From the NCBI GenBank assembly GCA_052327205.1, contig JBMRGM010000040.1:41416001-41480000 (forward strand): a DNA stretch of 64,000 bases. Reading direction: 5' to 3'. The notes beneath the pieces were generated by a model. It saw only the letters and a list, made by a program, of their open reading frames with translations, was not told the origin of the DNA and searched no databases. The stretch is from Somniosus microcephalus (taxonomy: Eukaryota). Made by a program: the position numbers and the translations under genes. Each line of letters starts with the position of its first letter. Position 1 is the stretch's first letter. This document shows positions 1 to 29,833 of the stretch, in pieces.

Positions 1-2420
1 ACTCGTGACTGGGTTACTGTTGCTGCTGATGAAAGGCAAGATATTCTTCAAACATAATTGGTGGAGCTACTGACTTGTGGGCCTGCACTGTGTCTGCGCT
101 GGGAGTAGGCAAGTTAGGTTCTGCATTGGTCAAATGAACGGCAGCAGCACCTGCTGCCTTTAACTGCAATAGCTGAATGACAGACTGGTTAACCTGCTTA
201 AGCGACAGGTTGAATTTGGCCCAACACATCAGAAAATCTCTGTGAAGCCATGGCGAGTTCATTAACAATTTTCCTCCTGGAAAAATCTAGAACTCGGGGG
301 CATGGATTCAGAATAAAGGGTCGCCCTTTTCAAACTCAGATAAGGAGGATCCCCTTCTCTCCGAGGGTCGTAAATCTGTGGAGTGCTCAGCCCCAGAGAG
401 CCGTGGAGGCTGGGACATTAATACAATTACGTTGGAGGTAGACAGATTATTGCAAGCTATGGGAGCGAAGGGTTATGGGGAGCGGGCTGCGAAGTGGCTT
501 TGAGCCCAAGATTCGCTCTGACCATATTGAATGGCGGAGCAGGCTCGAGCTGCCAAGTGACTTATTCCTGCTCCTGTTTCTTCTATTCTTATGTCTGTGC
601 AGTTGTGCCGAACGGATTGATGATCTGTTGACCTGTGTCCCAAGAACATCAATCTCGCGACTGATAGGTGAAAGAGAGTCAATGTTCTTCTCATGAAGAG
701 TAACCATATCTTGCCTCAGCACTTCAACCATTTGTACCTGTGTTTCTATGACATTTTGTTGCGTTGAACGTCTTGCTGCTTCTCTCACCTGCTCTGCAGT
801 ATCAGATTGGTGTCTGGCTGTGGAACGACAGTCATCTGCACCTGGCACAGAGCCAGGGGAGCCAAGAGATGGAGAGGTGGTGTGCAGCCACCCAGGGTCC
901 ACACCTTCCCCTTCCACTGTCTGACACTCCACAAACTCCTCCTCCTCTAACTCACTTACTGCTCGCTCTGCATCTGTAACCTCTTACCCAATGCCCTCTG
1001 CAGCCACAGACTTAACGCACTGTACATCCCGTGTGTGAGAAGACAGCTGTCCACCTGTGGGAAGGAAACAGTAAACATTGACAAAGGTGAAGCACGATCT
1101 GCCCCATCACAGAAGCTGATATTCAACACACACCTTCCAGTTTTAAACATACAGCTGGACAGACCAACTCACCTTTCCTTACACCAATGTCTGATTGGGC
1201 ACCAGGCACTGAACTGCCACAATTGATTCCAATCAATTTCCTGCTCCTTCCTCTTGCTCCGATAATGCCAAAAGTTTGTCAACACCACAGCCTGCCAGGG
1301 CACGCTCTCTGGCGTTATGTAATATTTTACTCTAAATTGAAAACAGTAATGAAAATGAAGCTTCAATTTTCCCTGCAGAGACCGCCCACCCACCTGCTTG
1401 CGAAGCAAGACCAAAGGTTGCTTTCGAGACAGGGTATTGTTCGCTATCTGAAATGTCACACCTGAAATCCGTGAGGGCAAATAAAATGTTCAGAAGCACA
1501 ATCAATGACCCAACGCTGCACCACATCAACTAAATATTATGACTAGGTCAGATGCCTGGATAATGAAGTCACTTTACAACAGCTGTGCAAATAAGCATGT
1601 TTTAAGGTACAAGTTAACTCTTAACAAATTTTACAGTTGACAATTCAAATAACTGTACAAACCTTGGCCGACCACTTTAAATCATTCAATATTTTGCAGC
1701 GTTGTTCCGCTCTCTGTGGAATGGTGGAGATCGCGCTGACAGCCTGGGCATCTTTTTGTCCAAGCTGTCATTTTTCCTTTCCGTAGTTCCCTGGATTCTC
1801 GGCCCCAATGATCCGCAGGTGCTTTGCTTCAACCTCATTGTCAGTGAAATTCTGTGCTCTCTTCATCATCACAACTGTGCTTGTTCATTCCATTTCACTT
1901 TGTTGTTTAATTAAAAGAAAAGAAAATTATTTCAATGCTTTTAAAACTTTTTAATTCTCGTTTGGAAGTCTTTAAAAGTATTTAAAATTCTTCAAATCCT
2001 TGTAAAAGACTTTCACATTTTCTAAAAGAATGCCAAACTTTTAAAAAACTTTAAAGAGTCAATTTATCATTGATATTAACAGTTAATTTCAATGGGGAAG
2101 GCTCTGGAAAGGTGAAAAATATCGGTGGCGTGCGCTATGCTAATATATATTTGATGGAACTTGTTGGCAGGTCTGCCCTACTGTCGAAGCCCGAGGCTCC
2201 GCGCACGCTGCGTTCCTGGGCGGCGTGGCAGCACAAGCTGCCCAGGAGCCCTCTGGATGTAACCGCAACTGTTTGTGTGCATGGAGAATGCAAGTAAATT
2301 CGGATCTTGTTTGCTGGAAGGAGGCTTTCATCTGCAGGAAGCCTCCGAACACATTTTCAGGCACAACTGTGTTTGTCAAATTGCAATGGGTGGAATGCTC
2401 ATGTGGAAATTGCAGTGCAA
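1..2420 (-). mobile_element. Decayed Harbinger DNA transposon, Myb/SANT-gene half (copy A, runs off window start)
   Basis: Minus strand about 1900-1660 encodes a degenerate Myb/SANT stretch (RAQNFTDNEVEA...VSAISTIPQRAEQRCKILNDL). ORFs 447-932 and 14-268 are homologous to ORFs 23999-24421 and 24521-24919 of the copy at 16.7-30.9 kb. The terminus position is approximate. Confidence 0.75.
270..595 (+). mobile_element. CR1 LINE 3' fragment inserted in Harbinger copy A
   Basis: Encodes SRTRGHGFRIKGRPF...RVVNLW (CR1 ORF2 C-terminus) followed by a CR1 3' UTR. Absent at the paralogous position (about 24480-24500). Confidence 0.85.
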
Positions 2421-3640: not shown

Positions 3641-4019
3641 AAACTTCTTAAGTTACAATGGGGTGGAGTTCTATGAAAATACTTCGACTTTGACACATCT
3701 TCTACAGGGCCGGGACTAGGAGATAAACATAGCTGGTTAGATAATTTTTAACTGTGATAAGAGTAAGCGAGAATGGCACTTTTAATCAGAGACTCCACTG
3801 AAGCAGGACTGCATTAGTGCATTAATATGATTGATGCAAAACGTGAATCCATATGGTTAGAATTAGGAATAAGAAGATTGAGGTTATACAATGCAGATGA
3901 CTGATTGCATGTTTATGGGGAAAAGGCCAGCTATAGGATTAATTTCGACAGCTCTTTCAACGAGCCGGCACAGGCACAGCCGACCAATTGGCCTCCTTCT
4001 GTGATGTAAGACTATGACT

Positions 4020-4255
4020 GTAGGAGTGAGACAGGGCAAGAGAACGAAAGACGGGACAGAGAGGGAGCAGAATAATAATAGAAAGTGAGGGAAGACAGAG
4101 ACACAGGGAGAGAAATGGAGCGAGAGGAGTGCGACAGGGAGATACAAAAAGAGAGAAGGAGACAGGGAGAAAGTGAAAGTGGGGTGAGAAAGAGAGACAG
4201 AGAGAAACAGAGAGTTCGAGGAAGTGAGAGGAGAGACAAAAATAGAGAGAGATAT
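4020..4255. repeat. GA-rich low-complexity tract
   Basis: Purine-rich (GAGA/GACA) run. Its inverted paralog is the CT-rich tract at about 12850-13100. Confidence 0.85.
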
Positions 4256-6831: not shown

Positions 6832-7058
6832 TTCACGAATTCCTAACAAATAACTGAGATCGACACAGGAGAACAAGCAACAGGTCTTTACTGCACAGAA
6901 AGTCCACGAGGACTAAAGGAGCCACGCCCCGTACATGCAAACTCTATATACAAAACACAGTAATGTCTAACACAATGGTACAGGTTCAGGCTGGTGTTGG
7001 AACATCGTTAAAGGGAATTATATACAGTTAGCCAGAGTCATTCAGTGGTTCTGCCACA
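6832..7058 (-). repeat. Gypsy 3' LTR
   Basis: Begins TGTGGCAG on the minus strand directly after the PPT. Aligns to 10925-11225 but has an internal deletion of about 65 bp and lacks the terminal about 8 nt, so no TSD is visible. Confidence 0.9.
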
Positions 7059-7234
7059 TGCGTCCCCCCAGAACTCGCTTTAACTGACAAAGTCAAATGG
7101 TTAGGGGGTCTGACTAGCCTTTCAGAATGACTCCTGTACTCTCGAGGCGGAGGCTGCGGGGCGGCTGGCGGTCCAGCGGGGGTTCGCACTTGGTCTGCTG
7201 TAACGACGATGGGTGGCTGACCCCGTCTCGGTGG

Positions 7235-10223
7235 TTATGCTGTCTCGACGGGGTGGTCGACGTCTAAATATGCTGGCTTTATGTAGTCGACCAAAATGTG
7301 GTCTGGTTTACCACCGACAGCTATCTTGAAGGTTTTGTCCCCTGCCTCCAACACGTGGAAGGGACCAATATATGGGGCCTTGAGTGGATCTCGATGTGCG
7401 TCATGGCTAACAAAAATGTATTCCTCCTTGTGAAGCTCCGTGGGAACGTGTGACCGCTGCATCCCGTGGTGCGAAGTGGGAACCGATGCGAAACATATGG
7501 CCGCCTATTGGTGACTAGCAAGCTGGGCAGACGTGTACCCTGGCTCCATCGATGTTGGTAGGAAATCCCCTGGGATTTGCAGCGGCTGACCATAAGCCAG
7601 CTCCGCCGATGAAGAGTGAAGGTCTCCTTTGGGGGCCGTGCAAATTCCCAACAGGACCCACGGTAGCATGTCTGCCCATCCAGCATCCTGGAGGCTGGCC
7701 CTCAGGGTGGCTTTCATTGACCGGTGGAAGCATTCACAGAGGACATTCGCCTGTGGGTGATAGGCTGTGGTGCGGTGTAATTTGAAACAGAGTCGCTGGG
7801 CCACTGCATTCAAGAGTTCAGAGGAAAACTGCGGTCCCCTGTCAGATGAAATATCAGTGGGAACTCCGAAACCGGCGATACAGGAGGAAATTAACACCCT
7901 GGCCACGTGTGTCGAAGTATTGGATGACAGGGGAACCGCCTTCGGCCATCTGGTGGTGCGATTAACCATGGTCAGGATGTGTGAAAAACCATGGGAGGGT
8001 GGGAGTGTTCCGACCAGGTCCACGTTGACATGGTCAAAACTTCGCTCCAGAACTGTGAAGGTGGCCAATGGAGCTTTGATGTGGCGCTGGACCTTGGCCT
8101 TCTGGCAGACCACGCAGGTGTTGGCCCAGTCACGGACATCCTTATGCATGCCATGCCAGACGAATTTCGCTGTCATCAGCTTCTGAGAGGCCTTCATTCC
8201 TGGGTCTGACAACCCATGTATGGCGTCAAACACTTTGCGGCACCAGGCGACTGGCACGACAGGGCGAGGATCCTGTATGGAGATGTCACACAACAGCGTG
8301 GTACCTGCTGAGTGGACTTGATGTCGGCCAACTGGCGGCCAGTGATGGCCGTTCTATATGCTTGGACCTCTGGGCCAAAGCTTGGTCCGTTGCCATGAGG
8401 GCGTAGTCGATGCCCAAATGAACTGTATTGATGATCGCGCAGGAGAGGCAGTCTGCCACCAGGTTGTCCTTACCGGCCATGTGCTGTATATCCGTGGTGA
8501 ATTCGGATATGTAGGTCAGTTGATGGTGCTGTTGGGCTGACCATGGATCAGTGGTCTTGGCCATTGCAAAGGTTAGCGGCTTATGGTCGACAAAGGCGGT
8601 GAAAGGACGTCCTTCCAATAGGAACCGACAAAGACGGATAGTCAGAAAAAGTGCGAGCAACTCCGGTATAATGTGCAGTATACTCTCTCATTCTGCCGTA
8701 GTTGACGGCTTAAGAATGCCAATGGCTGCCACGCCCCGTTCACCCACTGCTTTTGCACGGCACCGACTGCGTAGTCTGACTTGTCGGTGGTGAGGGCGAT
8801 GGTGCCTCCTGGCAGCGGGTGTGCCAGCATAGTCGCGTTGGCTAAGGTGCTTTTGGTGTCGGTGAAAGCTCGAGCCATGTCATCTGTCCAGTCGACTGGG
8901 TTCTTACCAGTCTTGCCCTTGAGGGCCTCATACACGGGCTGAATGAGCAGCGCTGACTTAGGCACAAAATGGTGGTAAAAAATTACCATGCCTAGGAATT
9001 TCTGCAGGGCCTTAACGTTCAGCCGCCGTGGAAAGGCTGTCACCGCCTCCACCTTCGACGGTAATGGAACCGCTCCCTCTGAGGTAATGCGATGCCCCAG
9101 AAAGTCAATTTGGTGCAGGCCAAACTGACACTTGGCCGGGTTTATAATCAGGCCGTGTTGGCTGAGGCATCGAAAAAGGGTGCGTAGGTGACAGGTATAT
9201 TCTTCCTTAGTAGGACAGGCAATTAGACTGGCAGGTAGACGAAGAGGAACTTGAGGTCCCGCAGCACGGAGGCCATCAGGCGTTGGAAAGCCTGGGTTGC
9301 ATTCTTACACCGAAAGGCATTCTGAGAAACTCGAAGAGGCGAATGGGGTGTTGACTGCCGCCGTCTGGACGACGTGAGGATGAAATGAAACCTGGTGGTA
9401 GCCCCGGACGATGTCGACTGTGGAGAAAACGTTGTTCCCTGCCAAATGGGCAGAGAAATCATGAATGAGAGGGATCGGGTACTGAACAGGAGAGGTGGCA
9501 TCGTTGAGGCGCCGATAGTCACCGCATGGCCGCCATCCTCCACCAGGCTTCTGGACAATATGGAGAGGTGAAGTCCAGGGGCTATTCGACCTGCGAATAA
9601 TCCAAACCATTCCATGGTTGTGAACTCTGCCTTTGTGACCACCAGCTTGCCAGGTTCCAGGCGCCGACCCTGTGCATATACCAGGGGGCCGTTGGTGTGG
9701 ATGTGATGTTCCACACCATGCTTCGTGGCTGTGGAAGAGAACGTGGGGCTCGTCAGGTCGGGGAATTCGCCGAGCAGGCGAGCAAACTCATCAGGAGTCG
9801 GAAACGCACAGGAGACGGTGCATGGCATAGTGTTACTGCGGTAACACGGAAGGGAATTGAAAGTTGCTGCACTGATCAGCCGCCGGTTACTAACATCGAC
9901 CAGGAGGCTGTTGGTGCAAAGGAAATCTGCGCCGAGTAGTGGCTGGGAATCTTTGGCCATAACAAACTCCCCTTGAAAGTGTTACCCCCCGAGGCACACC
10001 TCCACTCACCATCTGACGAAGGTCCGAATCGCTCCGCCATTGGCGACTTCAAGGGTGGGGCCGTGGTTTCCCGTTTGCACATCGAGGGCGGACGTGGGCA
10101 AAATGCTGAACTGCGCCCCGGTGTCGCACATGAAACGACGACCAGAGAGAGTATCTGTGATGAACAGCCATTTCCCCGCATTGCCGATCGCCATTGCGGC
10201 TGCGGGGCGCCCGTTAGACCCAT
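7235..10223 (-). pseudogene. Gypsy pol (protease, RT, RNase H, integrase), frameshifted
   Basis: Protease FMCDTGAQFS; RT WRPCGDYRRLN with the YLDD motif destroyed (VYLPV); RNase H TTDKSDYAVGAV and DHKPL; integrase VDLVG, SDRGPQF, ECFHRSMK; GPY/F module APYIGPFHV. Split over many ORFs. Confidence 0.93.
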
Positions 10224-10876
10224 TCCTCGATGTTCGCAGTGTCAGTTGTTTGGTTTTTTGGGGGGAAAACTGCAGGGAGAGCAGCAACGCTTCGCCTTAG
10301 CGCTGAACTGCGATGGTAGTAAAACAGCCCAGCAGGTTGACAAGCTGGGGCAGCATCTGCAGGGGATGGGTGCCTCGTGGCGGCGCAGTCCTGCCAAGTT
10401 ACCGCGAAAATGTTGTCGGCCTCCGCAGCGAGTGTTGCGCAGTCCTCAATTTCGGAGCTGTTCATGGCAGTTTGTATCGGCTCAGACAGTTGGCTGAGGA
10501 AAAGCTCACGAAATAGGAAACATTCCCGTTCTGAGCCCAGGAGTGTGAGCATTTGGCTCGTCAACTCTGAAGGCTTGGAGTCCCCGAGACCGGGCATAGC
10601 GAGTAATCGACGGACGCGCTCCAATTTTGTGAGCCCGAAAACCTGTAGCAACCGTGCTTTGAGGGTTTCATACTTGCGCTCCGTTGGAGGGTTTTCCAGG
10701 AGGCTGACGATCCGAGAAGAGGTAGAGCTGTCGAGTGCGGAGAACACATAAAGATATTTGGTCTGATCCGCATCGATGATCCTCAGGGCGAACTGGGCCT
10801 CGACCTGGCTAAACCACGAATGCGCTTGCTGCTCCCAGAACTGCGCAATTTTCAGCGAAATGGCGTTTCCCTCCAT
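10214..10876 (-). pseudogene. Gypsy gag
   Basis: Sequence MEGNAISLKIAQFWEQQAHSWFSQVEAQF...PGLGDSKPSEL is typical of small Gypsy gag proteins. The C-terminus appears frameshifted. Confidence 0.85.
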
Positions 10877-10924
10877 GCTGTGCTCTTCCTTTGTGAAAAC
10901 GTTCACAAAAAACGGGGTCACTGA

Positions 10925-11225
10925 TGTAGAAATTGATGAATTCTTAATAAATGACTGAGATCGACACAGGAGAAAAAGCAAACAGGTCTTTACTGAACAG
11001 AAACTTCACGAGGACTTCCTGGGCAGTCACGTGGTTTGCGACGTGGCGTCATCGCGTTTGCCCACGTTTTCCTGCGCTCTTAAAGGGGCCACGCCCCGTA
11101 CATGCAAACTCTATATACAAAACACAGTAATGCCTAACACAATGGTACAGGTTTAGGCTGGTGTTAGAACCTCGCTAAAGGGGATTATATACAGTTAGCC
11201 AGCGTCATTCAGTAGTTCTGCTACA
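10925..11225 (-). repeat. Gypsy 5' LTR
   Basis: TGTAG...CTACA inverted termini, adjacent to the PBS. Confidence 0.92.
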
Positions 11226-12178: not shown

Positions 12179-12849
12179 AATGTGTCCTGTAGTTGGGCGA
12201 GTTTACACGGGAGGTAAAGAGTGCGAATGTCCGTTGTGTAAGAAACGATTCTACAGATGATGTCACTTGATAGGGCATCGGTGAACTCACCCTGGGGAGA
12301 AATTATTCAGCCATTGAAAGCTTTAATAGATCCGACAGTTTGTAATGCCCGGGTGAATTCCTGAATGTTGGACGTGTTTGAATGTTGTGTGTGTGGAGAG
12401 TAATGGAACCTATATATGAGCCTCTCACAGTTACATGGTATGTGAAGGTAAAGTGCTCAGACACTACTGATCTAACACACTGCACACTTGTTAATTCATG
12501 TTCTGAAATCTCTCCATCACTGGGGTTTTCCTCCACGCCTGTCTGAGGGTGTTGTGGACTGAATGATAGAGATTGATCGCAGTAATTAGGCAACAAGCCC
12601 AGTATCGTTGTATGTTGCGAATGCCAGGATGGGAGAAAGACAATTCGATGGACCTTGGTCTTTCTTCACACCGGAGAGAGATCGGTTAACCAACTTATAC
12701 ACAAATAAACTGACAGCCTGTTAAAGGGGAGGTCAGTGTTTAAAAGGAATGAGATATATAAACCAACAACCTGTTAAAGGGTTGGCGAGTGTTTAACTGG
12801 GAAGCGGTAAATGCGTGACAGTCTTTTATTGTAACAGCATTCTTTAATT

Positions 12850-13100
12850 ATAACTCTCTCTATCTCTCTGTCTCTGTTTCTCTGTCTCTCCTTTCACTTT
12901 CCCTCACTGTCTATTTCTCTCTGTCTCTCTCTTACCTCATCACTTTCTCGCTGTTTCACTCTTTTTTTTATCTCTCTCAGTCGCATTCCCCTCTTTCCCT
13001 TTCTCTGTCTCTTTCTTCCATTTCTTTCTATTATTTCTCTTTTCTCTCTCTGCCCTCTTTCTTTCTCTTGCCCACTCCTCCTGTCTCTCTCTCTCCTAGT
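12850..13100. repeat. CT-rich low-complexity tract
   Basis: Pyrimidine run; inverted paralog of 4020-4255. Confidence 0.85.
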
Positions 13101-13153
13101 CATATTCTTACATCACATAAGGAGACCAATTGGTCCAGTGTGCCTGTGCAGAC

Positions 13154-14882
13154 TTTTTTTTAATTCATTGATGGGATGGGGGCGTCGCTGGCTAGGCCTG
13201 CATTTAGTGCCCATTTCAAACTGCCCTTGAGAAGATGGTGGTGAGCCGCCTTCTTGAACCGCTGCAGTCCATATGGTGTAGATACACCCACAATGCTGTT
13301 AGGAAGGGAGTTCCAGGATTTTGGCCCAGCGAGAGTGAAGGAACGGCGATACAGGTCCAAGTCAGGATGGTGTGTGGCTTGGAGGGGAACTTCTAGGTGG
13401 TGATGTTCCCAATGGTCTGCTGCCCTTGTTCTTCTAAGTGGTAGAGGTCGCGGGTTTGGAAGGTGCTGTTGAAGGAGCTTTGGCGAGTTGCTGCAGTGCA
13501 TCTTGTAGATGGTACACACTGCAGCCACAGTGCGCCGATGGTGGAGGAAGTGAATGTTGATGGTGGTGGATGGAGTGCCAATCAAGCGGGCTGCTTTATC
13601 CTGAATGGTGTCGAGCTTCTTGAGTGTTGTTGAAGCTGCACTCAACCAGGCAAGTGGAGAGCATTCCATCACACTCCTGACTTGTGCCTTGTAGTTGGTG
13701 GAAAGGTTTTGGGAAGTCAGGAGGTGAGACACACACCGCAGAATTCCCAGCCTCTGGTCTGCTCTTGTAGCCACAGTATTTATATGGCTGGTCCAGTTCA
13801 GTTTCTGATCAATGGTAACCACAGGGTGTTGATAGTGGGGGATTCAGCGATGGTAATGCCATTGAATGTCAAGGGGAGATGGTTAGAGTCTCGCTTGTTG
13901 GAGATGGACATTGCTTGGCACTTGTCTGGTGCGAATGTTACTTGCCACTTGTCAGCCCAAGTCTGAATGTTGTCCAGGTCTTGCTGCATATGGACACGGA
14001 CTGCGTCAGTATCTGACGAGTCTCGAATGGTGCTGAACAGTGTGCAATCATCAGCGAACATTCACACTTCTGACCTTATGATGGAGGGAAGGTCATTGAT
14101 GAAACAGCTGAAGATGGTTGGGCCTAGGACACTGCCATGAGGAACTCCTGCAGTGATGTCATGTGATTGAGGTGAATTACATCCAACAACCACAGCCAAC
14201 TTCCTTTGTGCTAGTTATGATTCGAACCAATGGAGAGTTTTCCCCTTGATTCCCATTGACTTCAGTTTTGCCATGGCTCCTTGATGCCACACTCGTTCAA
14301 ATGCTGCCTTGATGTCAAGGGCAGTCACTCTCACCTCACCTCTTGAGTTCAGCTCTTTTGTCCATGTTTGGGCGTCAGTTAGCAGGTTATTGCTGAGTAA
14401 GTGCCGCTTGATAGCACTATCGACGACACCTTCCATCACTTTGCTGATGATTGAGAGTAGACTGATGGGACGGTAATTGGCCGGGTCGGATTTGTCCTGA
14501 TTTTTGTAGACAGGACATCTTGGGCAATTTTCCACATTGCCGGGTAGATGCCAGTGTTGCAGCTGTACTGGAACAGCTTGGCTAGGAGTGCAGCAAGTTC
14601 TGGAGCACAAGTCTTCTGTTCTATTGCCGGAATGTTATCAGGGCCCATAGCCTTTGCAGTATCCAGTGTCTCCAGCCGTTTCTTGACATCACGTCGAGTG
14701 AATTGAATGGGCTGAGTACTGGCATCTGTGATGCTGGGGACCTCATGAGGAGGCCGAGATGGATCATCCACTCGGCACTTCTGGCTGAAGATAGTTGCAA
14801 ATGCTTCAGCCTTGTCTTTTGCACTCACGTGCTGGGCTCCACCATCATTGAGGATGGGGGTATTTTTGGAGCCTCCTCCTCC
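13154..14882 (-). mobile_element. 5'-truncated non-LTR retrotransposon (CR1/L2 supergroup, distinct family with an A-rich tail)
   Basis: ANYRPISLLS, ALDIKAAF, MFADDCT and YKAQVRSVME motifs in broken ORFs; tail ATGAATTAAAAAAAA. Absent from the paralogous site near 3965. Confidence 0.9.
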
Positions 14883-16889
14883 TGTTGAAGGAGCTTTCGA
14901 AATTAATCCTATAGTCGGCCTTTACCCCATTACCTTGAAAATTAGTAATCTTCATTGTATAACCTCAATCTTCTTATTCCTAATTCTAACCAAATGGATA
15001 GACGTTTTGCACCAATCATATTGATGCACCAATGCAGTCGTCCTTTAATGGAGTCTTTGATTAAAAGTGCCTTTCTACTTAATTTTATCACAGTTGAATA
15101 TTTTGTAACCAGCTATATTTCTCTCCTAGTCTGGAAAAGTAGAAGCCATGTCTAATTCTAAGCCTTTTGATAGAACTGCTCCCCAGTGCAATTTGAGAGG
15201 TTTAACTCCAGAAATGATAGGTTGGAAGTATAAGCAAAGAATAAACAGGCTGAGGTTCATTTCCACTGAAAAGAGAGCGCTATTGTGTGGCCTAATAAAG
15301 GTCATGGATATTATGAAGGTGTTAAATAGGGTAGACCTTAATAAAAAGTATCTACTTGTGGTGGACTCCAAAACTGGGTTCATAAATATAAGATAGTTAC
15401 TAATAAATCCAGTAAATATTTCAGAGAAAACTAGTTTATCCACAGAATGGTTAAAATTCGGAACTCGTTATCCCACAGAATATTTGTGGCGAATAGCATT
15501 GATACATTCAAGAAACAGAGAGATAACCACATCAGGGAGAAAGGAATGGAAGGATGTGGTAATAGGGTTAGGGGGAGTACAGTGGGAGGAGGCTCCTTTG
15601 GAGCAGGAACACCGCCATGGACAGGCTGGGCCCAATGTTCTGTTTCTGTGCTGTCAATTCCAGGTTATTCTTTATCATTTTATGTTTTAAGCCAGGTCTG
15701 TTTGCAGCACCGAAAGGAAAATCTGGCAGTGATTACCGCGACCGTTAAAGAAACCTCGGATTTCCCTGCAGGCTCGATTTCAACCTAACGCTCTGGCTGG
15801 GATGGGGCCACTTTTGATTGTACGACCGTCTATTTTACACCCGTCGATTTTATGTGCCAGTGAATGCTGTGCAGTTAGATGAAAATCAGTGTTTAACTCA
15901 AACTGAAGTATAATTTGGCGGAGTCTAACAGCCAATTCTCATCTGATTTTGCCCGCTTTGCGCAACCAGCCCAGACAAATTTCACTCCCATAGATCGTAG
16001 GAAGCAGGATCCAAACCCGACCGTTCAAACCCTTCAGCCTGTTCCACCATTAAATGGTACAACTCCACTTCATCTTCCCGCCTTTGATCCAGATCTTTGA
16101 TACTCTTAACTAACAGAAATCGACCAATCTCAGCCTGGAAATGATAAATTGGCCCAGCATCTGCAGCACTATGAGGAGCGGGATCCAGGTTCCTACTAGC
16201 ATTTGTGTGAAAAACTGCCTCATAATATCAATCCGACACGGCCGAGCAATAATTTTATGACCATATCTTCTTGTTCGGGATTCCCCCCCGTGGGAAATAC
16301 TTCCCATGTATCGATCCTGTCCAATCCTGAAACATTTTAAATCCCTCAATCAGATCACCAATCATCTTTCTCATTCCCGAAGGAATGCAAAGTTTATCCG
16401 CCATGTCCTTATAATGTAACCATTGTTGCGCTAGTAATATTCTGGCGAGTCTGCGTTACACCCACTCCAATGCCAATATATAATTTCCGATGTTCAGTGC
16501 CCAAACTTGAAGACAATAATCCAGATGGAGTCTGACCAAGGCTGGTTGCAATGTTTCACGGTATGCTCCATAATAAATCCTCCATTTCATTACTGATCGC
16601 ATTCCCTTTTTTTATGAGAACTTCTAATAATTCGTCAGTGGTTTATTGATTTTTATGTCACATTTAACCATTTATTTTAACCACTCCATTAATTGCTGGA
16701 TGTTATTTTACTCCCGCTGCAATACAAATCATTATTGAACTGGTGTTTATATTAAAATTTCCTCCTGAACTCCCCCCCATTCCACTTTGGCAAACACAAT
16801 TGTGACTGAAATTGCAATCGGAGGCCTCCCGCAGACGGAAGGTTGCGACAAGCAAACAAGCTTTGCATTTACCTGCAGGCTCTCTGCAC

Positions 16890-18290
16890 AGGGAGCAGCG
16901 TGGTGAGGAGCCCGGTATAAAAACCGGAGGCAGCAACGAGGCCAGAGCACTCGGAGCAGGGAGCAGCGTGGTGAGACCGGTATAAAAACCGGAGGCACAA
17001 GCGAGGCCAGAGCACTCGGAGCAGGGAGCAGCGTGGTGTGACCGGTATAAAAACCGGAGGCAGCAACGAGGCCAGAGCACTCGGAGCAGGGAGCAGCATG
17101 GTGTGACCGGTATAAAAACCGGAGGCACCAGCGAGGCCAGAGCACTCGGAGCAGGGAGCAGCGTGGTGAGACCGGTATAAAAAACGGAGGCACCAGCGAG
17201 GCCAGAGCACTCGGAGCAGGGAGCAGCGTGGTGAGACCGGTATAAAAACCGGAGGCAGCAGCGAGGCCAGAGCACTCGGAGCAGGGAGCAGCGTGGTGAG
17301 ACCGGTATAAAAACCAGAGGCACCAGCGAGGCCAGAGCACTCGGAGCAGTGAGCAGCGTGGTGAGCCCGGTATAAAAACCAGAGGCACCAGCGAGGCCAG
17401 AGCACTCGGAGCAGGGAGCAGCGTGGTGTGACCGGTATAAAAACCGGAGGCAGCAACGAGGCCAGAGCACTCGGAGCAGGGAGCAGCGTGGTGAGACCGG
17501 TATAAAAACCGAAGGCTGCAACGAGGCCAGAGCAGTCGGAGCAGGGAGCAGCTTGGTGAGACCGGTATAAAAACCAGAGGCACCAGCGAGGCGAGAGCAT
17601 TCGGAGCAGGGAGCAGCGTGGTGTGACCGGTATAAAAACCGGAGGCACCAGCGAGGCCAGAGCATCCGGAGCAGGGAGCAGCGTGGTGAGACCGGTATAA
17701 AAACCGGAGCCAGCAACGAGGCCAGAGCACTCGGAGCACGGAGCAGCGTGGTGAGACCGGTATAAAAACCGGAGGCACCAGCAAGGCCAGAGCACTCGGA
17801 GCAGGCAGCAGCGTGGTGAGACCGGTATAAAAACCAAAGGCACCAGCGAGGCCAGAGCACTCGGAGCAGGGAGCAGCGTGGTGAGACCGGTATAAAAACC
17901 AGACGCACCAGCGAGGCCAGAGCACTCAGAGCAGGGAGCAGCGTGGTGTGACCGGTATAAAAACCGGAGGCAGCAACGAGGCCAGAGCACTCGGAGCAGG
18001 GAGCAGCGTGGTGAGACCGGTATAAAAACCGGAGGCAGCAACGAGGCCAGAGCACTCGGAGCAGGGAGCAGCGTGGTGAGACCGGTATAAAAACCAGAGG
18101 CACCAGCGAGGCAAGAGCACTCGGAGCAGGGAGCAGCGTGGTGAGACCGGTATAAAAACCGGAGGCACCAGCGAGGCCAGAGCACTCGGAGCAGGGAACA
18201 GCGTGGTGAGACCGGTATAAAAACCGGAGGCACCAGCGAAGCCAGAGCACTCGGAGCAGGGAGCAGCGTGGTGAGACCGGTATAAAAAAG
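16890..18290 (+). repeat. Tandem array of 65-bp monomers, 22 TATA-containing units
   Basis: Consensus GCAGGGAGCAGCGTGGTGAGACCGGTATAAAAACCGGAGGCACCAGCGAGGCCAGAGCACTCGGA. TATAAAAA occurs at 16916 + 65n up to 18281. Confidence 0.98.
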
Positions 18291-18549
18291 AGGCACACCA
18301 ACTCAGCAGCGGGGAGAGAGGTAAAATGTAATCAGAGTGTGACGTCACCAGGAAGCAGGTAAGCGATTGGTTGGTGAGTATTTCTCTTATTTAAACTTAA
18401 ACTCTGTAGTTTTTAGTTACTAGGGTCTTTTCTGGTGTAGCAAGGACTGTTGGTAGACTATACACGCGCCTTAGAGATATCTTTAATTGGGGATAGTAAA
18501 TTAATTTAAATTAAGTAAAGGGAAGGTCCTGCCAGGTGAGCACAGACCC

Positions 18550-19479
18550 GTGATATGCTCCTCTTGCTCTATATTGGAATTCAGGGACACTGCCGGTGCC
18601 CCTGATGATCACGTGTGCCAGAGATGCATCCATCTGCAGCTACAAGCAGACCGCATTGAGGCGCTGGAGCTGCGGGTGGATGGATTATTGAACATTCACG
18701 ATGCTGAGAGGTTCGTAGATAACACGTTTAGTGAGTTGGTCACACCGCAGGGTAGGGCTGCACAGGAAGATAGGAAATGGGTGACCACCAGGCGGAGCAA
18801 TAGAAGCAGGCAGGTAGTGCAGGAGACCACTGTGACCATTCCCCTCTCAAACAGGTATACCGATTTGGATACTGTTGAGGGGGATGACTTACCAGGGGAA
18901 GGCAGCAGCAGCCAACTTCCTGGCACTGGGGGTGCTCCTGCTGCCCAGGAAGGGGGGAAAAAAGTTGGGAGAGAAATAGTGGTAGGGCATTCTATAGTAA
19001 GGGGAACAGATAGGCGTTTCTGTGGATGTAGACGTGAATCCAGGATGGTTTGTTGCCTCCCTGGTGCCTGGGTCAAGGATATCACTGAGCGGCTGCAGGG
19101 CATTCTGGAGGGGGAGGGTGAACAGCCAGAGGTCGTGGTCCACATTGGTACCAACGACATAGGTAAAAAGAGGGATGAGGTCCTGCAGCAAGAATTTAGG
19201 GAGCTAGGTGAAGGATTAAAGAGCAGGACCTCAAAGATTGTAATCTCTGGATTACTCCTGGTGCCACGTGCTAGTGAGTATAGGAATGGGAAGATAGAAC
19301 AGATGAATGCGTGGCTAAAGGGATGGTGCAGGGGGGAGGGCTTTAGTTTCCTGGATCACTGGGTCTGCTTCTGGGAAAGGTGGGACTTGTACAAGTCGGA
19401 CGGTTTACACCTGAACCAGAGGGGAACCAATATCCTTGCGGGGAGGTTTGCTAGCACTGCTGGGGGGTGTTTAAAGTAA
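18550..19479 (+). CDS. CR1 ORF1p: zinc finger/leucine zipper plus SGNH esterase domain
   Basis: CSSC...HVCQRC followed by a heptad region; esterase blocks VVGHS (GDS variant), CLPGA, HIGTND and DGLH. The frame is open but no ATG is seen at the expected start. Confidence 0.88.
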   Translation: MICSSCSILEFRDTAGAPDDHVCQRCIHLQLQADRIEALELRVDGLLNIHDAERFVDNTFSELVTPQGRAAQEDRKWVTTRRSNRSRQVVQETTVTIPLSNRYTDLDTVEGDDLPGEGSSSQLPGTGGAPAAQEGGKKVGREIVVGHSIVRGTDRRFCGCRRESRMVCCLPGAWVKDITERLQGILEGEGEQPEVVVHIGTNDIGKKRDEVLQQEFRELGEGLKSRTSKIVISGLLLVPRASEYRNGKIEQMNAWLKGWCRGEGFSFLDHWVCFWERWDLYKSDGLHLNQRGTNILAGRFASTAGGCLK

Positions 19480-22399
19480 CTTGGCAGGGGGATGGGCTAC
19501 AGAGTGGAGCTATAGCAGGGGGTGATTTACAGCCAAATACAGAGGAAAAAACAAGGCAGAGCAAATATGTGAAGGTAAAAGGGAACATGGCAGGGCTGGA
19601 AGGCATTTATTTTAATGCAAGGAGTCTTGCAAATAAGGTGGATGAACTGAAGTTGTTGTTGAACACATGGGAGTACGATATTGTTGCTATCACGGAGACA
19701 TGGTTGAGGGAGGGTCAGGACTGGCAGCTCAATATTCCGAGGTATAGAATCTTCAGGCGAGACAGAGGGGGGTGTAAAAGGGGAGGGGGTGTTGCAATAT
19801 TAATTAAGGAATCAATTACTGCTGTAAGGAGGGATGATATATTAGCGGCTTCCTCAAAAGATGCCATATGGGTAGAAATTAAAAACAAAAAGGGGGCAAG
19901 CACTTTGCTGGGAGTGTACTATAGGCCCCCAAACAGTCAGGGGGAGATAGAGGAACAGATATGTAGGCAAATCTCAGAAAAGTGCGAAAATCATAGGTTA
20001 ATAATAGTGGGGGATTTCAACTTCCCCAATATTAATTGGGATAGTCAGAGTGTGAAAGGTTTGAGGGTGCAGAATTCTTAAAGTGCATCCAGGAGAGCTT
20101 TTTGAGCCAACATGTAGAAAGTCCTACAAGAGAGTGGGCGAAACTGGACCTAATTCTGGGGAATGTAGCCGGGCAAGTGGTGGAAGTGTCAGTAGGAGAG
20201 CATTTTGGCGACAGTGACCATAAATCGGTGAGATTTAAGGTGGTCATGGAAAAAGACAAAGACGGCCCGGAAATAAGGGTTCTAATTTGGGGGAAGGCCG
20301 ATTTTATGATGATAAGGCAGGATCTGGCCAAAGTGGACTGGGAGCAGCTACTTATAGGAAAATCCACATCAATACAGTGGGAGACTTTCAGAAGGGAAAT
20401 AGCGAGAGTGCAATGCCAACATGTTCCTGTAAAGGTCAAGGGGGGGACCAACAAGCAAAGGGAACCTTGGATGACAAGGGATATACAAAAATGCATTAGA
20501 AATAAAAGGGGGGCTTTTGGCAGTTACAAAAGACTAAAGACGGAAGAAGCCCTAGAGGAGTATACAAAGTGCAGGGGCATACTTAAAAAATATATTAGGA
20601 GGGAGAGGAGGGGCCATGAAATAACACTGGCGAGCAAAATAAAGGAAAATCCTAAGATGTTTTATAAGTATATTAAGGGCAAGAGGATAACCAGGGAAAG
20701 GGTAGGGCCCATTAGGGACCAAAGTGGCAATCTGTGTGTAGAGCCAGATGATGTAGGCGGGGCTTTAAATGAATTTTTTGCATCTGTGTTCACTATGGAG
20801 AGAGACGACGCAGACATCGAAATCGGGCAAGGGGACTGTGACATACTTGAACATATTAGCATCGAGAGGGCGGAGGTGCTAGCAGTTTTAGCAGGCCAAA
20901 AAGTGGATAAATCCCCAGGCCCGGACAAGATGTATCCCAGGCTGCTGTTGGAGGCAAAGGAAGAGATTGCAGGGGCTCTGACACAAATTTTCAGAACCTC
21001 TCTGGCCACAGGGGATGTACCAGAGGACTGGAGAACAGCTAATGTAGTACCATTATTCAAGAAGGGTAGCGGGGATAAACCAGGGAATTACAGGCCAGTG
21101 AGCCTAACATCTGTGGTAGGGAAATTATTGGAAAAAATTCTGAGGGACAAAGTTAGTCTCCACTTGGAGAAGCAAGGATTAATCGGGGATAGTCAGCATG
21201 GCTTTGTCAAGGGTAAATCATGTCTGACAAATCTGATTGAATTTTTCGAGGGAGTGACTAGGGGGGTGGATGAGGGAAATGCTGTGGATGTGGTTTACAT
21301 GGACTTCAATAAAGCTTTTGACAAAGTCCCGCATAGGAGACTTGTCAAGAACGTAAGAGCCCATGGGATCCAGGGTGCCTATGCGCATTGGATCCTAAAC
21401 TGGCTGAGTGGCAGGAGGCAGAGGGTGATGGTCGAAGGTTGCTTTTGTGAATGGAAGCCTGTGTCCAGTGGGGTACCTCAGGGATCGGTGCTGGGTCCCT
21501 TGTTGTTTGTGATCAACATAAATGATTTGGCTGAAAATGTAAAAGGTATGATCAGTAAGTTCGCAGATGACACGAAAATTGATGGGGTGGTGAATTGCGA
21601 GGAGGAAAGCCTCAGGCTACAGGATGATATAAACGGGTTCATCAGATGGGTGGAAAAGTGGCAAATGGAATTTAACCCTGAAAAGTGCGAGGTGATACAT
21701 TTTGGACAGACAAATAAGGCAAGGGAATACACAATGAGTGGTAGGACCCTAGGAAGTACAGAGGGTCAGAGGGACCTTGGTGTACATGTACATAGATCCC
21801 TGAAGGCAGCGGAACAGGTAGATAAGGTGGTTAAAAAGGCATATGGGATACTTGCCTTCATTAGCCGAGGCACAGAATATAAGAGCAGGGAGGTTATGAT
21901 GGAACTGTACAAAACGCTGCTGAGGCCACAGCTGGAGTAATGTGTGCAGTTCTGGTCGCCTCACTATAGGAAGGATGTGATTGCCTTGGAGAGGGTGCAG
22001 AGAAGATTCACCAGGATGTTACCTGGGATGGAGCGCCTCAGCTATGAAGAAAGAATAAACAGGCTGGGGTTGTTTTCCTTGGAGCAAAGAAGGCTGAGGG
22101 GGGACCTGATTGATGTGTACAAAATGATGAGGGGCATAAATAGGATAGATAAAGAGGAACATTTCCCCTTAGTAGGGGGGTCAATAACAAGGGGGCATAG
22201 ATTCATGGTAAGGGGCAGGAGATTTAGAGGGGATTTGAGGAGGAACTTTTTCACCCAGAGGGTGGTTGGAATCTGGAACTCACTCCCTGAAAGGGTGGTA
22301 GAGGCAGGAACCCTCACAACATTCAAGAAGCATTTGGAAGAGCACTTGAAGTGCCATTGCATACAAGGCTATGGACCAAATGCTGGAAAATGGGATTAG
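19467..22399 (+). pseudogene. CR1 ORF2 (APE endonuclease and RT) with two lesions
   Basis: NARSL, ITETWL, YYRPP, GDFN, SDH, GVPQGSVLGP and KFADDTK motifs. One frameshift near 20060 and one TAA at 21938-21940. Confidence 0.95.
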
Positions 22400-22869
22400 A
22401 CTGGACAGGCATGGATGGGCGGCGCAGACACGATGGGCCGAAGGGCCTCCTTCTGTGCTGTAAAACTCTATGACTCTATGACACGGAGATGTGTGCTTTC
22501 ACCCTGAAGATTCCTGGGCAGCGTATGACGTCACGCCGCCCAGGCTCTCAGTATGCGGGAAGCCTCGGACTATGATCCCAGGGTGACCCGCCCACAAGAT
22601 CAGTCAAAATTTATATTTGCATAGGCCACGCCCTCGATTTTTCTCACCACTCCAGAGTCTTCACCATTGAAAGAAACCGTTAATCATAATGATAAGTTCT
22701 TTCCTTAAAGTTTTAATAATACTTCTGTATATTATTAGAAATGTTAAAAGACTTTACATGGTCTTGAAGAATTATACATAGGTCTAAAGACGTCTAAAGT
22801 GTTTAAAACATTTTAAAGAGATTTAAAAGCTTTGAAATCATTTTCCTTAATTTGAATTAAACTCCAAAG

Positions 22870-24919
22870 TGAAATGGAAGCAGCGAGCACATTTGTGATG
22901 ATGAAGCAAGCTCAGAATTTCACTTACGATGACATCAATACACTCCTCAATTAGGTTGAGCAGAAATGCTTGCGGGTCACTTGGACAGAAGTTGCCCAGG
23001 CTGTAAGCGCAAACTCCCCCATTCCATGGAGAGCGGAACAATGCTACAAAAAAATGAATGATTTGATGCGATCGGACAAGGATTGGACAGTTATTAGAAA
23101 TGTCAACTGTAAAATATGTTAAAATTTAATGTTTCTCTTTTATAAAACGTTAAGTTGCATAGCTGTTGTAAAGTGACTTCATTATCCAGGCATCTGACCT
23201 AGTCCTAAAATGTAATCGATTTGGAGTAGTTTTGGGAGATTGATGGTGCTTCTAAATATATTATCACCCCTCCACAGATTTGAGATGTGAAATTTCAATT
23301 AGAGAACAATACCTTGTCTGCAAAGCAGCAACTAATCATTTTTCCAAAGCAGTTGGTTGGGGTCTCTGCATTTCTGATGACAATTTACAGTAAAATGGTA
23401 CATATCGCCAGAGAGCATGCCCTGACAGGTGTTGGTGTTGTCACTCTGACGAAGTTATTGGAACAAGAGGAAAGGGTCACGCACTTGCTTGGAATCAGTC
23501 GTGGATGTTCAGTGCCTGGTGCCCAATCAGACATTGGGGTAAGGAATGGTGAGTTGGTCTGCCTATCTGTATGTTTATAACTGGAAGGTGTGCGTTGAAT
23601 ATTAGCTTCGGTGATGGGGCAGATTATGCGTCACCTTTGTAAATCACAGAAATCACAGAAACCCCACAGTGCAGATAGAGGCCATTTCGGCCCATCCAGC
23701 CTGCACCGACACATGTCCCACCCGATCCCCGTAACCCCTACACCAACACATATCCCACCCTATCCCCGTAACCCCACGTATTTAATCCCTCTAACACTAA
23801 GGGTCAATTTATCATAGCCAATCAACCTAACCCGCACATCTTTGGACTGTGGGAGGAAACCGGAGCACCCAGAGAAAACCCACGCAAACACGGGGAGAAT
23901 GTGCAAACTCCACACAGACAGTCGCCCGAGGCCGGATTCGAACCCGGGTCCCTGGTGCTGTGAGGCAACAGTGCTAACCACTATGCCACCGTAAATGTTT
24001 GCTGTTTCCTTCCCACAGGTGGACAGCTGTGTCTCACACACGGGGTGAACAGTGTTTTGAGTCACCGGCTGCAGAGTGCATTGGGGAAGGGGTTACAGAT
24101 GCAGAGCGAGCTGTAAGTGGGGTGGACGAGGAGGAATTTATGGAGTGTAGCTCGTGGAAGTTGAGAGTATGGTCCCTGGTTGAGCTCCACACCATCTCTC
24201 CATCTCCTGGACCCTCTGGCTCTGTGCCAGGCATCATTTACTGTCGTTCCACAGCCAGACAGCAACCTGATACTGCAGAGCATGTGGGAGAAGCAGGAAG
24301 ACGCGTAACGCAACAAAATGCTACAGAAACACATGTGCAACAGGTTGAACAGTTGAGGCAAGATATGGTTACTCTTCATGCAAAGAAACTTGGGTCTCTT
24401 GCCTCTAACAGGGGGAATTGATGATCTTGGGAGCAGTACATTGCAATTAGTTGGAGACCGGTCCACAGAACTCAATCAGTTCTGCACAACTGCACAGGAA
24501 ATTGTTAATGAGCTTTTCTGATGTGTTTGGCCAAGTTCAATCTGGTGCTTGAGCAGGTTCACGGGTCTCTCGTTCAACTATTGCAGTTAAAGACAGCAGG
24601 TTCGACTGTCGTTCATTTGACCCCCACAGAACCCCGATTGCCTGCTACCAGCGAAGACACAGAGCAGGTCCACGAAAAAGCAGCTCCGCCAATTATGTTT
24701 GAAGTAAATGTTGCCTTTCAGCAGCAGCAGCCGAAACCCTGGCACGAGCCATTTGCTGAAGGGCAAGAGATGTCACACAGGGATCTTTCCCTTAGTATGA
24801 GATGCACAGGTCACGGGGAAGGGCAAATCACAGGAGGCAGTATAGGGCCACTTTTACACATTCCACCTCCTTCGACCATCAGGCACAGATGTGCGGGGGC
24901 ATATCTGTCAATTCTGTAA
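22870..24919 (+). pseudogene. Harbinger Myb/SANT-like gene remnant (copy B)
   Basis: KQAQNFTYDDINTLL...TWTEVAQAVSANSP..WRAEQCYKKMNDL; downstream coiled-coil-like ORFs are shared with copy A. Confidence 0.72.
23645..23990 (-). mobile_element. tRNA-derived V-SINE (HE1-like)
   Basis: A box TGGCATAGTGG, B box GGTTCGAATCC, V-domain core TGTGTGGAGTTTGCACATTCTCCCCGTG...CTCCGGTTTCCTCCCAC, CR1-type tail, and 6-bp TSD GTAAAT (23639-23644 and 23991-23996). Confidence 0.93.
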
Positions 24920-26232: not shown

Positions 26233-29200
26233 ACATAAGAACATAAGAACATAAGAAATAGGCGCAGGAGTAGTCCAATCGGCCCCTCGAGCCTGCTCCA
26301 CCATTCAATAAGATCATGGCTGATCTGATCCTAACCTCAAATCTTCTATCACTCTGCATCCACCCGAACCCATGTGATCTCCCGGGAGAGGCGAAAAACC
26401 AGATAAAGACCCAATGGCCAATTTGGGAGAAAAAAATCTGGGAAATTCCTCTCCGACCCATCTAGGCGATCGAAATTCTTCCAGGAGATCACTCTGTCCC
26501 TATATTTTCTACAGTACTTACCTTCTGTAAAGGCGATCTCCACTCCAGCCAGGAACAGGAATAAAACCATCTCCTGAAATCTAACAGAATTAGAACAAAG
26601 TAGGAGCAGAACAAGGCTACACGGCCCCTGGGCCCGCTCCACTACCCACAGGGCCATGACCATTCCGAACCCAGACTCATGTACAATTTCCTGCCCGCTC
26701 CCCGTAACCCTTTATTCCCTTTACTTCTAGGAAACTATCTATTTCTGTTTTAAATTTATTTAATGATGTAGCTTCCACAGCTTTCTGGGGCAGCAAATTC
26801 CACAAACCTACCACCCTCTGAGTGAAGAAGTTTCTCCTCATCTCAGTTTTGAATGAGCAGCCCCTTATTTTAAGATTATGCCCCCTAGTTCTAGTTTCAC
26901 CCATCATTGGGAACATCCTCACCGCATCCACCCGATCAAGCCCCTTCACAATCTTATATGTTTCAATAAGATCGCCTCTCATTCTTCTGAACTCCAATGA
27001 GTAGAGTCCCAATCTACTCAACCTCTCCTCATATGACCACCCCCTCATCCCCGGGATTAACCGAGTGAACCTTCTTTGTACTGACTCGAGAGCAAGTATG
27101 TCTTTTCTTAAGTATGGACACCAAAACTGTATGCAGTATTCCAGGTGCGGCCTCACCAATACCTTGTACAACTGCAGCAATACCTCCCTGTTTTTATATT
27201 CCAACCCCCTAGCAATAAAAGCCAACATTCCATTGGCCTTCTTAATCACTTGTTGCACCTGCATACTAACTTTTTGAGTTTCGTGCACCAGGACCCCCAG
27301 ATCCCTTTGTACTACAGTACTTTCCAATTTCTTGCCATTAAGATAATAACTTGCTCTATGATTTTTCCTGCCAAAGTGCATAACCTCACACTTTCCAGTA
27401 TTGTATTCCATCTGCCACATCTCTGCCCACTTACTTAGCCTGTCTATGTCCCTTTGCAGGTTTTTTATGTCCTCCTCACTCACTACTTTCCCTCCCATCT
27501 TTGTATCATCTGCAAACTTTAATATGTTACACTCGGTCCCCTCCTCCAAATCGTTAATATAGATTGTAAAGAGTTGGGGACCCAGCACTGACCCCTGCGG
27601 AACACCACTAGTTACTGGTTGCCAATCTGAGAACGAACCATTTATCCCAACTCTCTGCTTTCTGTTAGAGAGCCAATCCTCCACCCACGCCAGAATATTA
27701 CCCCCAATCCCGTGATTTTTTATCTTGAGCAATAATCTTTTGTGTGGCACCTTGTCAAATGCCTTTTGGAAGTCTAAATACACTACGTCCACTGGTTCCC
27801 CTTTATCCACCCTGTATGTTACTTCCTCAAAAAACTCAAGCAAATTTGTTAAACATGACTTCCCCTTCATGAAACCATGCTGAGTTTGCCCTATTAAATT
27901 ATGTTTATCCAAATGTCCCGTTACTGTCTCCTTAATAATGGACTCTAACATTTTACCAACCACAGATGTTAGGCTAACAGGTCTATAGTTTCCAGCCTTC
28001 TGCCTACTACCCTTTTTAAATAAGGGTGTTACATTAGCAGTTTTCCAATCTGCCGGGACCTTTGCTGAGTCCAGTGAGTTTTGGAAAATTATTACCAATG
28101 CATCCACAATCCCTACCGCTACTTCCCTCAAGACCCTGGGATGCAAGCCATCAGGTCCAGGGGATTTATCCGCCTTGAGTCCCATTATTTTACCAAGTAC
28201 CACTTCCTTAGTGATTTTAATCGTATTTAGTTCCTCCCCCCCTAGAGCCCCCTGTTTGTCCAGTGTTGGGATATTCTTAGTGTCCTCTACTGTAAAGACT
28301 GATACAAAATAATTGTTCAGTGTTTTTGCCATCTCCATGTTTCCCACCATTAATTTCCCGGTCTCATCCTCTAAGGGACCAACATTTACTTTAGCCACCC
28401 TTTTTCTTTTTATATAACTATAGAAACTTTTACTGTCTGTTTTTATATTTTTTGCTAATTTACTTTCATAATCTATCTTCCCTTTCTTAATCAATCTTTT
28501 TGTTATTTTTTGCTGTCTTTTAAAGACTTCCCAATCTTCCATCCTCCCACTAGATTTGGCTACCTTATATGCCCTTGTTTTTAGTCGGATACTATCCTTA
28601 ATTACTTTACTTAGCCACGGATGGCTATCTTTTCTTTTACACCCTTTTTTCCTCAGTGGAATATATTTTTTTTGGAAGTTGTAAAATAACTCCTTAAATG
28701 TACACCACTGGTCATGTACCGTCTTACCCTTTAATCTATTTTCCCAGTCCACTCTAATTAATTCCGCTCTCATACCTTCATAGTCTCCTTTATTCAAGCT
28801 CAGCACGCTTGTTTGAGATCCAACCTTCTCACCCTCTAATTGAATATGGAACTCAACCATGTTATGGTCACTCATTCCAAGGGGATCCTTTACTAGGACA
28901 TTTTTAATTTATCCTGTCTCATTACACAGGACCAAATCTAAGGTTGCTTGCCCCCTGGTCGGTTCAGTTACATACTGCTCAAGAAACCCATCCCTAATAC
29001 ACTCAATGAACTCTTCCTCAAGGCTGCTCTGCCCAATTTGATTTGTCCAGTTAATATGATAATTAAAATCCCCCATAATTATAGCTGTTCCATTATTACA
29101 AGCCTCAACTATTTCCTGATTAATACTCCGTCCAACAGAGTTGCAACTGTTCGGAGGCCTATAGACTACACCCACTAGTGTTTTTTTCCCCTTATTATTC

Positions 29201-29833
29201 CTTACCTCCACCCAAACTGTTTCACTATCCTGCTCCTTTGACCCAATATCATTTCTCTCTATTATAGTAATTCCTTCCTTTATTAACATCGCCACCCCAC
29301 CTCCTCTCCCTTCCTGCCTGTCCTTCCTGATTGTTAAATAACCTGGTATGTTTAATTCCCAGTCATGGTCACCCTGCAGCCATGTTTCTGTAATGGCCAC
29401 AAGATCATACCCATATGTCATTATTTGTGCCGTTAACTCATTCATTTTGTTACGAATGCTACGTGCATTCAGATAAAGAACTTTCAAATATGTTTTGTAA
29501 CACTTAGTTCCTGTTTTTTCCCTTTTTAGTACTTTACTTTTTACTCCATACCTTCTGTCCCTTCCTGACACATTCTGTTTTTTAATTCCCCCACTGCTAC
29601 CTAAGTCTATGACCTTCTCTGTTGTCATTTCTATTATTTGCTCTCTAGAAACCTCCCCCCCACTAATTAGTTTAAAGCCCTCTCTACAGCCCTAGTTATA
29701 TGATTCGCCAGGACACTAGTCCCAGCACTGGCCAAGTGGAGTCCGTCCCAACAGAACAGCTCCCTCCTGTCCCAGTACTGGTGCCAGTGTCCCAAGAAGC
29801 AAAACCCATTTCTCCCACACCAGTCTTTGAGCC
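26233..29833 (-). mobile_element. Young CR1 LINE, 5'-truncated within ORF1
   Basis: ORF1 C-terminus (WLKDWC...DGLHL), complete ORF2, (TTCTTATG)n tail, and AGT repeated at both junctions. Confidence 0.96.
26677..29628 (-). pseudogene. CR1 ORF2 (APE and RT), single in-frame nonsense codon at 28909-28911
   Basis: The 239-aa and 732-aa ORFs are in the same frame and all EN and RT motifs are present (KFADDTK). Confidence 0.95.

Follow-up and report, generated by a model that had tools for sequence, protein, structure and literature searches.

The usual teaching is that LINEs have internal promoters without a TATA box and that long arrays of 5' monomers are a speciality of mouse (PMC6454616); the account of the literature given here draws on excerpts of the sources cited. 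Mouse L1 monomers drive reporters, and start sites inside the monomers are where 5' ends cluster (PMC6454616, PMC9022269, PMC7778262). The arrays have a mean of about 3 units and reach up to 50 (PMC6454616, PMC9022269). The accepted model of mouse L1 is that of a consumable array (Loeb 1986, cited in PMC7778262). Extension of the array has been proposed to occur by stepwise addition or by unequal crossing-over, and the step of monomer loss and regain is still called unclear (PMC6454616). According to PMC2894050, mouse monomer promoters lack a TATA box and are linked to YY1. Other mammalian L1s carry two or three tandem copies (PMC5381506).

Related arrangements have been reported outside L1. 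Drosophila HeT-A obtains an upstream-type promoter through head-to-tail arrangement and has disposable 5' sequence, as proposed below for a shark element, but its promoter lies in the 3'UTR of a neighboring whole element at telomeres rather than in 5' monomers of its own (10.1101/782904). A 32-bp direct repeat is present in the 5'UTR of turtle and pufferfish elements (cited in PMC2734521), a short repeat with E boxes as opposed to the long TATA array described here. In sharks and rays, CR1-group elements account for 22-34% of the genome (PMC13343379). The text of that study speaks only of 1-5 subunits of 100-500 bp for some ORF1-less elements, and the available part of its main text contains no mention of "promoter," "tandem," or "tata." Excerpts of PMC13144441, PMC7245038, and 10.1101/443036 hold nothing further on CR1 promoters. 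In the open literature, no paper on the transcription start of shark or ray CR1 and no description of TATA-bearing CR1 monomer arrays was found; Repbase, Dfam, subscription journals, and Zenodo consensus files may have one. The concept of a consumable array is old, and what was not found in the literature covered is its occurrence in the CR1 clade, its TATA core, and its apparent breadth among sharks and rays.

The 64-kb window, which is the whole stretch of Somniosus microcephalus DNA analyzed here, contains a CR1 LINE headed by 22 short tandem units (Table 1). It resembles the mouse L1Md A, Gf, and Tf families in having 5'-terminal tandem GC- and CpG-rich monomers followed by a tether and then ORF1, a 5' end that falls within a monomer, mosaic monomer subtypes, and a predicted loss of units offset by duplication. 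L1Md belongs to the L1 clade and has TATA-less units of about 200 bp, whereas the present element is a CR1 with 22 units of 65 bp, a canonical TATA box, and a putative promoter function. The array is thus an analogue of the L1Md monomer promoter and no member of it, given the CR1-type ORF1 and 3' end and the 65-bp TATA unit.

Table 1. Features of the CR1 element and its insertion site, followed by four shark and ray CR1 consensi with canonical-TATA units (PMC13343379 supplement, first 400 nt, compared by eye)
Feature	Position or unit	Strand	Evidence and remarks
Full-length defective CR1 LINE	16891..22480	+	Junctions versus empty paralog, ORF domains, 3' octamer repeat
3-bp target duplication	16888..16890	+	Repeated at 22481-22483; target also resembles 3' octamer
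5'UTR monomer array	16891..18288	+	21.5 x 65-bp unit, 61% GC, CpG o/e 0.81, 22 TATAAAAA boxes
First TATA box	16916..16923	+	Putative function; next ones every 65 bp, last at 18281-18288
Units 7-11	17281..17605	+	Shared-variant pattern returns in units 15-19 (17801-18125)
Non-repeated 5'UTR (tether)	18289..18528	+	Weak monomer likeness at its start, P=0.04
Conserved block	18313..18388	+	Motif scan; 70/76 nt same as spiny dogfish SquAca_CR1-15b (by eye)
ORF1, zinc finger/leucine zipper and SGNH esterase	18529..19479	+	Start codon lost; Pfam, PDB
ORF2, AP endonuclease and reverse transcriptase	19587..22399	+	Frameshift within 20045-20081, stop at 21938
3' terminal octamer repeat	22465..22480	+	Two copies, no poly(A); sequence
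Empty paralogous site in old inverted duplication	2276..2286	-	Alignment to both flanks
HypSab-12	168-bp unit, canonical TATA		Consensus start +29
RhiTyp-2a	About 101-bp unit, canonical TATA		Start +32; repeat covers only about 15 nt
ScyCan-11b	About 290-bp unit, canonical TATA		Start +34
ScyCan-19	80-bp unit, canonical TATA		Start +22

Vertebrate CR1 LINEs have a short tandem repeat at the 3' end and no poly(A). Judged from its reading frames and 3' end, the element has this vertebrate CR1 layout. ORF1, whose start position is taken from homolog P0004, matches Pfam Lipase_GDSL_2 (1.6e-11) and PDB 4c1b (2.7e-26), and ORF2 matches Pfam Exo_endo_phos (1.4e-11) and RVT_1 (4.7e-31). The zinc finger/leucine zipper plus esterase of ORF1 is the combination termed type IVB, CR1 subgroup 7 (PMC4120745), and the APE-RT ORF2 and the short 3' tandem repeat are likewise shared with vertebrate CR1. 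The named matches to ORF1 are mostly from sharks and rays (best, 65%); those to the RT include shark and ray proteins at up to 67% and bird and turtle proteins at about 40-57%. By eye, ORF1 and the 5'UTR also resemble supplement rows labeled CR1 in PMC13343379. Three protein matches (P0013, P0080, and P0116) are shark-like CR1 sequences filed under bacterial names on short contigs and probably reflect host contamination. An ORF1 profile gave 53 pattern matches in GTDB, which reduced to one locus, a bacterial esterase, and was set aside.

This copy is dead, with the ORF1 start codon lost and one frameshift and one stop in ORF2. Among conserved residues, 10/103 differ in ORF1 and 5/168 in ORF2, the latter amounting to about 1.4% of nucleotides (one alignment-edge position dropped), and decay of the copy overall is about 1.5-2.5%. 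The earlier note on this DNA had called the element young, a description that stands in a relative sense only, in view of these lesions. A second CR1 in the window (26241-29850, minus strand) has a near-intact ORF2, is truncated within ORF1, and lacks a 5' array.

The insertion can be delimited against an old paralogous copy of its target in the window. Positions 2000-2600, read on the minus strand, align with the left flank up to 16890 and with the right flank from about 22474-22481, with a 3-bp overlap at the join, and both the array and the LINE are absent. The 5' end of the LINE is placed at 16889-16891 owing to a 2-nt overlap with the flank. Since the paralog joins the flanks without either component, array and LINE arrived as one insertion or grew as one. 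The empty site near 2275, reported earlier as lacking the repeat, is thereby confirmed, and so is the proposal that the array arrived with or grew on the LINE, which also agrees with related shark CR1s having 5' units of their own. The empty site is an old paralog (74-79% identical) and no allele. It belongs to an inverted duplication (638-4868 versus 12262-24432; 72-82% identical, with later insertions within) in which there is a degraded CR1 fragment and, judged by eye, a Myb/SANT-like remnant.

The array itself is regular. TRF reports a 65-bp tandem repeat at 16889-18288 with 21.5 copies, 93% matches, and 0% indels; TATAAAAA occurs in 22/22 units, spaced by exactly 65 bp throughout (16916-18281). 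The TATA box is enclosed by inverted repeats, an inner one of 5 bp and an outer one of 5 bp, and the CCGGT-ATAAAA-ACCGG palindrome is unbroken in 13/22 units (59%). CpG sites are preserved at 90/100 positions in units 2-21. The exact period, the unchanging box, the palindrome in most units, and the largely retained CpGs of the earlier note are all recovered, with "most" meaning 59%.

What does not survive is the use of box invariance and CpG retention as signs of function. The array has undergone 25 distinct mutation events, 19 of them private changes (19/1377 sites, 1.4%) and 6 of them shared variants, and because events are so few, an invariant TATA box is no evidence of selection. Eight untouched TATA columns are expected by chance with P=0.04 under a uniform model and P=0.20 under a base-weighted one, and the longest unchanging run in the unit, 12 columns, has P=0.15. 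Private transitions affect 3/212 CpG sites versus 3/1165 sites elsewhere; because CpG sites mutate faster than others in the array, their retention reflects age. Transversions account for 13/19 private changes at 16891-18288, and six are G/C to C/G, an unusual spectrum.

TATA-containing Pol II core promoters have the box consensus TATAWAWR and an initiator 27-33 nt downstream. As a sequence match, the units fit this consensus and spacing: in 19/21 units, the TATA box is followed 28 nt downstream by a CA that resembles an initiator (P=0.04 given the box). We lean toward reading the array as a self-renewing monomer promoter like that of mouse L1, with a TATA box and an initiator-like site in every unit. 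The 65-bp unit would be a circularly permuted core promoter with its TATA near the unit end; the box would direct Pol II to initiate where the next unit begins, about 28-33 nt downstream, and the CRE/Ets/CCAAT block in the tether would assist. An RNA begun at unit n would lack the TATA of that unit and carry all downstream units, so that a new insertion would retain promoters. At least one unit would be lost per cycle, and units would be restored by duplication, through unequal exchange or template jumps. The loss of about one unit per cycle envisaged in the earlier note holds if the 5'-most box always fires and is otherwise a lower bound; equal use of the 22 boxes would, by calculation, leave a mean of 10.5 units, halving the array per cycle.

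Comparable 5' ends occur in CR1 consensi published for sharks and rays. By eye, comparison covered the first 400 nt of 124 such rows in Supplementary Table 2 of PMC13343379; roughly 75/124 extend into the 5'UTR. A 5' tandem unit of 29-290 bp is visible in 18/124 rows, four with a canonical TATA box, six with a TATA-like or degenerate core, and eight without a TATA-like core, and the published consensi show about 1-6 units within these 400 nt. Elements such as SquAca_CR1-15b, -7, and -9, HypSab-12, ScyCan-11b and -19, RhiTyp-2a and -7, and LeuEri-1 likewise combine an esterase ORF1 with 5' units, several of which hold a TATA box or an A-rich core; they differ from the present element in unit sequence and length and in having few copies. 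The nearest, SquAca_CR1-15b, shares the tether block and is headed by about two 76-bp units that resemble those described here, with an A-rich core that is degenerate only. Blocks similar to the tether block are found by eye in CarCar-4, CarCar-7a, SquAca-3, and SquAca-18, and a chimaera L2 in the same supplement appears to have the same 5' layout. Because shark and ray CR1 consensi carry 5' tandem units too, the array is no local accident: by these comparisons, 5' arrays appear recurrent in elasmobranch CR1, with TATA common and not required.

The 65-bp unit itself has been seen in one place. Exact monomer motifs have no match in the first 400 nt per consensus of the PMC13343379 supplement, the monomer is absent elsewhere in the 64-kb window, and its pattern has no match in GTDB genomes or plasmids. 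The family is represented by one observed copy. The other CR1 copies in the window are 5'-truncated and so have no 5' end to compare.

Start-site geometry gives a mixed picture. If a virtual TATA is placed upstream, the 5' end of this copy lies 41-43 nt below its first T, matching the figure of about 40 nt given earlier, and falls 8-15 nt past the expected start (+28 to +33); a single 5' end that overlaps the flank by 2 nt cannot settle the start geometry. Among the canonical-TATA consensi, 3/4 begin 29-34 nt below the box (Table 1), and four measured rows with a TATA-like core start at +27, +33, +35, and +41. A TATA-like core is also present in the PriPec-4 and LeuEri-1 units. The consensi of LeuEri-1 and RhiTyp-11, both TATA-bearing, begin upstream of the box. 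Curation determines where a consensus ends, and the offsets were read off by eye and after the fact, so they are a lead and no test. The claim of TATA-directed geometry in the earlier note is supported by the initiator-like CA and by three of the four consensi, and not by the element's own end.

A broader possibility, which we offer tentatively, is that several CR1 lineages of cartilaginous fishes, and one or more L2 elements of chimaeras, gave up a purely internal promoter for circularly permuted upstream TATA units stacked head to tail, each a tiny U3-R, which would be swapped between ORF lineages and in which array length would count down the generations that a copy can still spawn. Should the reading as a self-renewing monomer promoter hold, a second LINE clade would have arrived independently at the monomer solution, and with a core promoter of sharply defined position. 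The fixed distance from TATA to start and the indel-free 65-bp period would make monomer loss and regain countable from genome sequence.

The tether provides the main alternative site for promoter activity. Its conserved block contains what we take to be a CRE palindrome at 18340, an Ets-like site at 18350, and an inverted CCAAT at 18366, and presumably also splice-donor-like sites at 18356 and 18373. It is rather doubtful, on balance, that the array belongs to CR1 with an incidental TATA, the promoter being the internal CRE/Ets/CCAAT block and the units a purine-rich buffer, an enhancer array, or a by-product of template jumping. Such a view would explain why the block is shared across families, SquAca_CR1-15b above all, while the upstream units vary in length from 29 to 290 bp. 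The eight of 18 published arrays without a TATA-like core, and the six with a degenerate one, the nearest relative 15b included, count against the promoter reading, and for the 5'UTR of chicken CR1 the excerpt consulted mentions E boxes and no TATA (PMC2734521). An incidental box is difficult to reconcile with the low chance of a canonical sense-strand TATA in a 65-bp unit of this composition (61% GC; shuffle P=5.5e-4) and with several unrelated units whose TATA, by eye, is suitably spaced from the start of the consensus. The CRE, moreover, follows the last TATA by 59 nt, a position that does not suit the block as a classical upstream element for that box.

Two further features of the tether deserve mention. 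The two strong donor-like sites at 18356-18379 are kept in dogfish families, and several published shark CR1 units appear by eye to hold the TATA inside a hairpin of a donor-like site and its complement; a 5'UTR intron or masking of a splice donor is possible from these motifs. In addition, the tether block is nearest to SquAca_CR1-15a/b, whereas ORF1 (18529-19479) is closer by eye to SquAca_CR1-11 and ScyCan_CR1-10, and these different nearest relatives suggest swapping of 5'UTRs between CR1 lineages.

The history of the array bears on whether its length is a property of the family or of this locus. Five consecutive haplotypes match at lag 8 (units 7-11 versus 15-19; permutation P=0.0099), which may be the trace of a block duplication with a 520-bp lag; this run test was picked after a mean-lag test for higher-order repeats had given P=0.43 over all lags and 0.06 at lag 8. 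The regain of units proposed earlier is supported to the extent of this trace. The blocks differ at 12/325 nt, like other units, and the duplication is roughly the same age as the remainder of the array. Private changes in the array (1.4%) match the decay of ORF2, which gives array and insertion about the same age. ORF1 is seemingly more decayed than the array, so some growth after insertion is conceivable.

Local growth is the essence of another explanation, one compatible with either promoter reading, in which the family has one to few units and the 22 copies arose here by minisatellite expansion after insertion. The few units of the published consensi point in this direction; the duplication of units 7-11 could postdate insertion, the decay of ORF1 may exceed that of the array, and the hairpin potential of the unit (dimer z=-4.0) could favor slippage. 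We nevertheless regard expansion at this locus as unlikely. The 12/325 differences between blocks and the 19 private single-unit changes indicate that growth was not recent, repeats collapse in consensus building, and mouse arrays with >10 and up to 50 units exist.

The inverted repeats that flank the box on both sides raise the question of whether the A-rich box matters as a hairpin loop in RNA or DNA, serving in splice-donor masking or RT pausing, and not as a TBP site. By eye, the box of ScyCan-19, CarCar-14, RhiTyp-2a, and RhiTyp-8 lies between a donor-like site and its complement. Common variants in the present array break the stems uncompensated, however; both arms are intact in only 5/20 units, and single-unit z-scores range from +0.2 to -3.5. 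A hairpin in place of a TBP site is consequently improbable, and a conserved RNA hairpin was rejected for want of compensatory changes. Rfam has no match in the window. Long antisense ORFs of the array (400-540 aa) were rejected as genes, being by-products of a stop-free strand: a peptide search with the antisense frames gave 108 candidates, none at E<=0.01, and four matches in a full-library search were all unrelated repeats on inspection.

That the array is an independent satellite abutting the LINE by chance is very improbable: a 74-bp satellite with a palindromic TTTATAAA core does adjoin CR1 fragments in the window and is no 5'UTR, but the 65-bp array has no separate target duplication, it shares one empty site with the LINE, its last unit continues into the tether, and a dogfish family has, by eye, the same tether under a similar-looking unit. 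The 74-bp satellite occupies 44350-45756 (19 copies) and 50122-50417 (4 copies). Each of the two arrays directly follows a CR1 3' end, of one kind in both cases, whereas the 5'-truncated CR1 pieces that come next differ, which shows that this satellite is no 5'UTR array.

Other elements in the window include a Harbinger-like DNA transposon at 34476-38729 with 16-bp terminal inverted repeats identified by eye, a DDE_Tnp_4 transposase on the minus strand, and a second gene on the plus strand. An LTR-type element at 6837-11225 is bounded by direct repeats that are about 90% identical, and its minus strand carries frames for integrase (rve, H2C2) and DUF7041. Finally, a 683-bp near-perfect palindrome at 48643-49325, with arms 91% identical, is MITE-like.
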